Below are positions 56,781 through 57,587 of a DNA stretch of 64,000 bases, piece after piece. The notes beneath the pieces were generated by a model. It was not told the origin of the DNA. It saw only the letters and a program-made list of their open reading frames with translations, and did not search any database. The translations under genes were made by a program, and so were the position numbers. Every line of letters begins with the position of its first letter. The first letter of the stretch is position 1. This DNA comes from Escherichia coli (GTDB lineage: Bacteria > Pseudomonadota > Gammaproteobacteria > Enterobacterales > Enterobacteriaceae), in the NCBI RefSeq assembly GCF_003334305.1, contig NZ_QOWS01000004.1; one strand, 5' to 3'.

Positions 56781-56964
56781 ATTTCTCTGAGATGTTCGCA
56801 AGCGGGCCAGTCCCCTGAGCCGATATTTCATACCACAAGAATGTGGCGCTCCGCGGTTGGTGAGCATGCTCGGTCCGTCCGAGAAGCCTTAAAACTGCGA
56901 CGACACATTCACCTTGAACCAAGGGTTCAAGGGTTACAGCCTGCGGCGGCATCTCGGAGATTCC
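56781..56964 (+). ncRNA. ssrS: 6S RNA (RNA-polymerase-binding regulatory RNA)
   Basis: Begins ATTTCTCTGAGATGTTCGCAAGCGGGCCAG and ends GGCGGCATCTCGGAGATTCCC; closing stem between the 5' CUCUGAGAUG and the 3' CAUCUCGGAG. Ends approximate. Confidence 0.9.
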
Positions 56965-57038
56965 CTTCTTATCTGGCACCAGCCATGACGCAACTACCAG
57001 AACTCCCACTGACATTATCCCGACAAGAAATCCGCAAA

Positions 57039-57587
57039 ATGATTCGGCAACGTCGTCGTGCGTTAACGCCGGAACAACAGCAGGAAATGGGTCAACAAGC
57101 CGCTACCCGGATGATGACTTATCCCCCGGTGGTGATGGCGCATACGGTCGCTGTATTCCTCTCTTTTGATGGTGAACTCGACACCCAGCCGCTAATAGAA
57201 CAACTCTGGCGCGCCGGTAAGCGCGTATATCTTCCAGTTTTGCATCCCTTTAGTGCCGGTAATTTGCTGTTCCTGAATTACCATCCGCAAAGCGAACTGG
57301 TGATGAACAGGTTGAAGATCCATGAGCCAAAACTGGATGTGCGTGACGTGCTACCCCTTTCCCGATTAGACGTGCTGATCACACCGCTGGTCGCCTTTGA
57401 TGAGTACGGTCAGCGCCTGGGAATGGGCGGTGGTTTTTATGATCGGACCTTACAAAACTGGCAGCACTATAAAACGCAACCGGTGGGTTATGCGCATGAT
57501 TGTCAGTTGGTGGAAAAACTCCCCGTTGAAGAGTGGGATATCCCTCTTCCTGCGGTGGTTACACCGTCGAAAGTCTGGGAGTGGTAA
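57039..57587 (+). CDS. fau: 5-formyltetrahydrofolate cyclo-ligase
   Basis: 182 aa from ATG 57039 (MIRQRRRALTPEQQ); alternative in-frame ATG at 56985; formerly ygfA. Confidence 0.88.
   Translation: MIRQRRRALTPEQQQEMGQQAATRMMTYPPVVMAHTVAVFLSFDGELDTQPLIEQLWRAGKRVYLPVLHPFSAGNLLFLNYHPQSELVMNRLKIHEPKLDVRDVLPLSRLDVLITPLVAFDEYGQRLGMGGGFYDRTLQNWQHYKTQPVGYAHDCQLVEKLPVEEWDIPLPAVVTPSKVWEW

Follow-up and report, generated by a model that had tools for sequence, protein, structure and literature searches.

The ssrS-fau (ygfA) locus of Escherichia coli: a 6S RNA gene upstream of a folate enzyme gene, the fau start codon, and the adjoining Sib/Ibs modules

Introduction

In the E. coli locus considered here, a 6S RNA gene (ssrS) lies directly ahead of the gene for 5-formyltetrahydrofolate cyclo-ligase (fau, also named ygfA), and two Sib/Ibs modules follow closely. 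The arrangement raises the question of which of these elements are read as one transcript and where each of them begins and ends. An earlier note on the same DNA had proposed that ssrS and fau are cotranscribed. We followed up this proposal on the whole 64,000-nucleotide stretch of DNA (here called the window), using covariance models, profile searches, promoter and terminator scans, folding, and comparison with other genomes and with the literature. The ssrS-fau operon is itself already known. Descriptions of it go back to 1985, and published work covers its promoters, its processing, and its termination by Rho. The features that we assigned are collected in Table 1.

Table 1. Features assigned at the ssrS-fau locus, with window coordinates, strand, and the basis of each assignment
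Feature	Coordinates	Strand	Basis
Candidate P2, distal ssrS promoter (TTGCAA-17 nt-TAGAGT), in the zapA coding region	56521..56549	+	Sequence reading
P1, proximal ssrS promoter (ATGACA-18 nt-TAGAGT, extended -10 TG)	56736..56765	+	Consensus scan
ssrS, 6S RNA (mature, 183-184 nt)	56781..56964	+	Rfam RF00013, fold, K-12 identity, RefSeq
C-rich, G-poor, unstructured stretch (20-nt spacer plus first 20 codons of fau)	56965..57044	+	Base composition, fold
fau (ygfA), 5-formyltetrahydrofolate cyclo-ligase, 200 aa	56985..57587	+	PF01812, NF007661, TIGR02727, PDB homologues, PGAP
Hairpin directly after the fau stop, without U-tract; left edge of the sib repeat unit	57587..57610	+	Fold
First Sib RNA gene (promoter, RNA, terminator hairpin)	57613..57790	+	RF00113, 137 bits, match 57613-57763
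First ibs toxin ORF, MMRLAIILIVLLLISFPAY, antisense to Sib	57688..57747	-	Translation; RefSeq "type I toxin-antitoxin system Ibs family toxin"
Second Sib RNA gene, tandem copy	58005..58182	+	RF00113, 134.2 bits, match 58005-58155
Second ibs toxin ORF, MMRLVIILIVLLLISFGAY	58080..58139	-	Translation; RefSeq CDS ibsC
Loci of other species with long ssrS-fau spacers: L028, L033, L036, L051, L054, L057, L058, L069, L070, L075, L081			

Results

A full-length 6S RNA gene identical to that of K-12

When the whole window was searched against Rfam, model RF00013 was matched over its entire length (positions 1 to 187 of 187) at 139.8 bits, well above its gathering score of 46.4 (E = 2.2e-28). This is the structure-based covariance search that the earlier note had named as a check. 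It bears out the presence of 6S RNA, and the match begins at position 56781, exactly where the gene had been said to start. The RNA folds at -80.5 kcal/mol (z = -5.6), an energy that none of 200 shuffled sequences reached. Its minimum-energy fold is an extended hairpin, with the Rfam structure line aligned throughout, as expected of the 6S rod with its closing stem, central bubble, and terminal stem-loop.

Comparison with ssrS of K-12 revealed identity at 184 of 184 positions. The template region at U44 reads as the complement of the known pRNA. Binding of sigma70 RNA polymerase by 6S RNA and the templating of pRNA have both been published for the K-12 molecule (PMC3299989, PMC1874619), and on the strength of the full identity the 6S RNA of the window would be expected to share both properties.

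The reading frame of fau stays open upstream as far as an ATG within ssrS, which yields a mechanical open reading frame of 248 aa (56841-57587, + strand). A database cluster of 248-aa proteins (P0001) comes from gene callers that chose an ATG inside ssrS. We regard the 248-aa frame as almost certainly an artifact; the segment is 6S RNA.

Relation to K-12 and to other E. coli genomes

The region from 56300 to 58400 was found in all 5,426 of the 5,426 complete E. coli genomes, and it is 100% identical to the corresponding region in several of them, e.g., that of strain E2865. The RefSeq annotation of the identical-locus strain gives the gene order pepP(-), ygfB(-), zapA(+), ssrS(+), fau(+), two ibs genes (-), serA(-), and rpiA(-). 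Elsewhere in the E2865 genome, xdhA is annotated as frameshifted; by analogy, the corresponding part of the window would be at about 1300-3700. The coordinates of the window and of E2865 shift against each other by about 114 nt near a tRNA-Gly gene (window 87-157).

Between K-12 and the window, we counted seven substitutions over 56249-57600, a 1.35-kb segment that runs from the upstream side of zapA through fau. All seven lie outside ssrS, P1, the ssrS-fau spacer, and the initial 150 nt of fau, and results obtained with K-12 at these elements therefore transfer directly to the window. The K-12 ssrS-ygfA unit (b2911-b2912) has the same order of zapA, ssrS, and fau and a 100% identical 6S RNA. 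Identity extends to P1, to the spacer, and to the 5' part of fau; apart from the annotated start of fau, there is no substantive difference between the two.

P1 and a candidate distal promoter upstream of ssrS

The promoter scan used a simple sigma-70 consensus and required matches at 9 or more of 12 positions, so that weak promoters, for example one internal to fau, or non-sigma70 promoters could be missed. It recovered P1 immediately upstream of the RNA. The P1 promoter of ssrS has been described as having a "CG" at -3/-2 (PMC3141248). Since this dinucleotide fits C56769/G56770, we infer that transcription from P1 starts at G56772, 9 nt ahead of the mature 5' end of 6S RNA.

A second candidate lies farther upstream. 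It matches the consensus at 8 of 12 positions and is thus under the scan threshold. Its start site would lie some 224 nt ahead of the mature 5' end, which fits the published distal promoter, and on this ground we regard 56521-56549 as a candidate for P2. The exact position of -224 is the one reportedly given by Kim & Lee 2004. The distal ssrS promoter has been reported to be sigma70/sigmaS dependent (PMC10406553, PMC12152304).

The start codon of fau

The product of fau was recognized by profiles of the enzyme family. PF01812 was matched over its full length (model positions 1 to 186 of 186) by residues 13-194 with an E value of 8.2e-48, and the NCBIfam models NF007661 and TIGR02727 gave 447 bits (cut-off, 343) and 180.6 bits (cut-off, 84.9), respectively. 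Solved homologues (2jcb, 1ydm, 1sou, and 3hxt) align with Fau from residues 12-14, which correspond to their own N-termini.

The earlier note had put the gap between ssrS and fau at about 75 nt. This agrees with the K-12 record, in which ssrS ends at 3056165 and fau starts at 3056241. The K-12 start is the second in-frame ATG (equivalent to 57039 in the window), and it gives a protein of 182 aa. In contrast, PGAP and our comparative data point to the first ATG, which gives a protein of 200 aa and a gap of 20 nt. In the identical-locus strain, RefSeq places ssrS and fau at exactly the positions of Table 1, with the PGAP fau at 56985-57587.

All 79 Enterobacteriaceae species that were compared have the upstream ATG (56985, MT...), while the K-12-type ATG (57039) is found in only 7 of the 79, which belong to Escherichia, Pseudocitrobacter, and Citrobacter amalonaticus. 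Both PF01812 and TIGR02727 start at residue 13 of the 200-aa form, and the short form drops the first 6-7 profile positions. In an alignment of Fau from 13 genera, R13, Q14, I16, and R17 are invariant. Because the upstream ATG is universal in this sample and gives Fau the N-terminus that is typical of its enzyme family, we prefer it, and the true start of fau is most likely at 56985, with a spacer of 20 nt rather than 75. The figure of 75 nt thus holds for the K-12 annotation and gives way to 20 nt at the conserved start. The K-12 annotation of fau is probably 18 codons (54 nt) short at the N-terminus. The spacer reads CTTCTTATCTGGCACCAGCC, and no Shine-Dalgarno-like motif is seen in these 20 nt ahead of the fau start.

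The ssrS-fau junction

A 6S RNA gene directly upstream of a cyclo-ligase gene on the same strand, with neither a promoter nor an intrinsic terminator between them, is the arrangement of the ssrS-ygfA operon. An independent promoter and terminator separating ssrS from fau would speak against cotranscription, and we scanned for both. On the + strand, the consensus scan found no promoter-like and no intrinsic-terminator-like site in 56766-57413; beyond P1, the first promoter-like site of this strand was not reached before 57880, and no terminator-like site was reached before 57414. The sequence around the junction (56950-57045) folds no better than its shuffles (z = -0.10). We rejected a terminator-like site at 57414-57429, within fau, as not meaningful, the scan total being 2 sites against 2.5 in shuffled sequence.

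The claim that no terminator lies between the two genes therefore stands with regard to intrinsic terminators. It does not extend to termination by Rho, as a Rho-dependent terminator inside fau has been published (PMC3299989). The statement there, made with reference to Chae et al. 2011, places Rho-dependent termination within ygfA, and to the extent of that statement read-through from ssrS into fau is partial and regulated. Among genome-wide bicyclomycin data that mention ssrS, we found nothing in the literature relevant to E. coli.

We examined the base composition of the stretch that follows 6S RNA. The 80 nt after the gene contain 32.5% C and 13.8% G, which places them at the 98th percentile of the window, and the GC skew at 56960-57039 is -0.47. 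The bias is shared by other species: C exceeds G in the 80 nt after 6S RNA in 78 of 79, with means of 34% C and 13% G, while the body of fau has 27.5% C and 28.8% G. Being C-rich, G-poor, unstructured, and without a Shine-Dalgarno motif, the stretch has the traits of a rut site. On the basis of its composition, 56965-57044 is likely to be a region for Rho loading.

For K-12, cotranscription of ssrS and ygfA is credited by later papers to Hsu 1985, Kim & Lee 2004, and Chae 2011, and a transcript spanning both genes is part of the published record (PMC2848244, PMC7641849, PMC3299989). By its identity to K-12, the strain of the window would be expected to cotranscribe them as well. The earlier proposal of cotranscription is thus supported by the published K-12 state, by sequence identity across the junction, by the scans, and by the conserved gene order that is described below.

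Conservation of the ssrS-fau linkage

To sample conservation, we used an alignment of the Fau protein as the query and took one genome per species; the best 80 loci all came from Enterobacteriaceae. In each of the 20 genera searched with the Rfam covariance model, a 6S RNA gene immediately precedes fau and shares its strand. By blastn, the 6S-fau order was seen in 79 of the 80 species among these best loci. Of the 79 species, 64 have a spacer of 14-34 nt between 6S RNA and the conserved ATG, and 4 others have one of 56-61 nt. A further 11, from Klebsiella, Raoultella, and Intestinirhabdus (Table 1), have long spacers of 100-125 nt that share a conserved block, GTGTATTACACTACGCCT. A simple scan of two of the long spacers (L036 and L057) detected no promoter-like or terminator-like site.

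The lone exception is Superficieibacter electus BP-1 (L066), which has fau without ssrS upstream, and the linkage is consequently not obligatory. In this locus (positions 1500-2000), a different open reading frame ends at the fau start codon and homology to a sister species starts only inside fau, which suggests that the junction is the breakpoint of a rearrangement or insertion.

Outside the Enterobacteriaceae, our account of the linkage is drawn from the literature. The linkage of ygfA has been called [quoted passage not shown] (PMC2848244). It has been reported for ssrS-ygfA in Coxiella burnetii (PMC4064990) and described as "broadly conserved in Proteobacteria" (PMC7641849). In Coxiella and in the ZapAB-SsrS-(FAU1)-EVE arrays of beta- and gammaproteobacteria, the cyclo-ligase gene carries 6S RNA in its 5' region and on its own strand, as in E. 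coli (PMC4064990, PMC7641849). Unlike these arrays, E. coli lacks an EVE-domain gene downstream of fau (PMC7641849) and has the Sib/Ibs modules and serA there instead.

These data bear on whether ssrS and fau might be independent neighbors, with 6S RNA ending at a terminator of its own and fau transcribed from its own promoter in or just after ssrS. Our scan is crude, as a requirement of 9 of 12 matches would pass over weak or non-sigma70 promoters. When bla was inserted in ssrS, polar effects on ygfA were reportedly absent (PMC2848244), although transcription could exit from the cassette. One species does have fau without ssrS upstream. Against this, the scans of 56766-57413 returned neither type of site, and the conserved start leaves only 20 nt after 6S RNA in an unstructured stretch. 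The tight spacing is kept in most of the species sampled, and cotranscription is stated as experimentally shown (PMC2848244, PMC7641849). We therefore consider independent genes very improbable and retain the reading of ssrS and fau as one transcription unit.

Two Sib/Ibs modules follow fau

The earlier note had placed sib/ibs modules directly after fau. This proved correct: two matches to RF00113, both above the cut-off of 56 bits, lie there in tandem, and the -35 hexamer of the first begins 26 nt past the fau stop codon. Each match has a 19-codon ibs open reading frame on the opposite strand, a near-consensus promoter (TTGACA-17 nt-TAATTT), and a terminator hairpin (-17.8 kcal/mol in the first Sib and -17.7 kcal/mol in the second). 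By analogy with the coordinates of K-12 sibC, the first Sib transcript would run from about 57649 to 57789. With 6S RNA and two Sib RNAs, the count of three RNA-based elements also held. The span of about 1.6 kb that had been given for them did not; we measure about 1.4 kb between the start of 6S RNA and the terminator of the second Sib.

The hairpin that directly follows the fau stop is GC-rich (-14.9 kcal/mol, z = -2.3) and did not score as a terminator in our scan. A second copy occurs at about 57980-58002, ahead of the second Sib promoter, and for this reason we assign it to the sib repeat unit. That unit is part of a tandem direct repeat (57598-58278) with a period of 392 nt and 89% identity between the copies.

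The downstream modules are the sibC/ibsC locus, here tandemly duplicated. As with SibC/IbsC of K-12 (b4446/b4665), they occupy the intergenic position between fau and serA, match RF00113, and encode a 19-aa Ibs peptide antisense to Sib. K-12 has one module, while the window has two. The K-12 IbsC peptide is MMRLVIILIVLLLISFSAY, from which the peptide of the second copy differs at one residue. The form with two modules occurs in about 1,872 of the 5,426 complete E. coli genomes (about 34%), counted as genomes with a second, off-diagonal place of match (7298 - 5426 = 1872); this agrees with the 1871 genomes in which the inter-module segment is covered. At least one O157:H7 genome (H36) seemingly lacks the module, so that the copy number within E. 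coli ranges from 0 to 2.

By the covariance model, Sib adjoins fau in only 5 of 20 genera. Because the Sib genes have promoters and terminators of their own and are so seldom found next to fau, the neighborhood of 6S RNA and Sib is not a conserved functional unit. That read-through from ssrS-fau continues into the Sib genes, which would make the 1.4 kb one RNA-regulatory unit that adds Sib antisense against the ibs mRNAs, is scarcely credible: Sib does lie on the ssrS-fau strand, its first -35 is close behind the fau stop, and the only structure in between is a hairpin that has no U-tract, but each Sib is equipped for its own transcription and termination, the association is not conserved either among genera or in copy number within E. 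coli, and no such transcript was found reported in the literature consulted.

Discussion

Taken together, the data make us confident that this locus represents the dual-function transcription unit ssrS-fau (ygfA) of E. coli. Our own analysis supplied the identities of the elements, the finding that neither a promoter nor an intrinsic terminator separates the two genes, the rut-like composition, and the conservation of order, spacing, and start codon. The cotranscript, the dependence on Rho, the RNases, and the functions of 6S RNA and Fau are taken from the literature.

In the model that we propose, transcription would start at two tandem promoters, the sigma70-dependent P1 about 9 nt upstream of the mature RNA and the distal P2 inside zapA. 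The 6S part of the transcript would fold to a rod with a central bubble, and RNase E/G would cut out its 5' end. Meeting no intrinsic terminator after 6S RNA, RNA polymerase would then enter the unstructured stretch, rich in C and poor in G, in which the fau start codon lies. Rho would stop most transcripts in the 5' part of fau, and exonucleases would trim these back to the 3' end of 6S RNA; the transcripts that escape Rho would be the fau mRNA. The use of two promoters, the processing of the 5' end by RNase E/G, and the exonucleolytic trimming of the 3' end have been published for ssrS (PMC12152304, PMC10406553, PMC3141248), as have the sequestration of sigma70 RNA polymerase by 6S RNA and its release by pRNA synthesis (PMC3299989). 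In the strain of the window, 6S RNA would accordingly be expected to sequester sigma70 RNA polymerase in stationary phase until pRNA synthesis from U44 releases it, and Fau would return 5-formyl-THF to the active folate pool. The two Sib/Ibs modules are separate type I toxin-antitoxin cassettes, each with its own promoter and terminator, and represent a tandem duplication of sibC/ibsC that varies among strains.

The conserved start codon of fau has no Shine-Dalgarno sequence and lies 14-34 nt past the closing stem of 6S RNA in most Enterobacteriaceae, and the translation of fau could conceivably be linked in a mechanical way to what becomes of the 6S precursor. The binding of RNA polymerase to the 6S part or the trimming of its 3' end might, for instance, decide whether ribosomes or Rho gain access to the junction, and read-through might also reach the Sib genes on the same strand. 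This goes beyond what the literature on the operon describes, and we hold it to be improbable. Our preferred reading remains the dual-function unit with partial, Rho-limited read-through.

The functional reason for pairing 6S RNA with an enzyme of folate salvage is still called unknown (PMC2848244), and the window adds nothing that makes this question more testable. The value of the locus lies in correct annotation rather than in discovery. Our only additions to the known operon are the start codon of fau, with its 20-nt gap in place of 75, and the recognition of the duplicated sibC as a common polymorphism. Two practical points follow for those who annotate E. coli genomes. The legacy start of fau in K-12 is very likely 54 nt too far downstream, and sibC/ibsC is a common copy-number polymorphism of E. 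coli, with 0, 1, or 2 copies.
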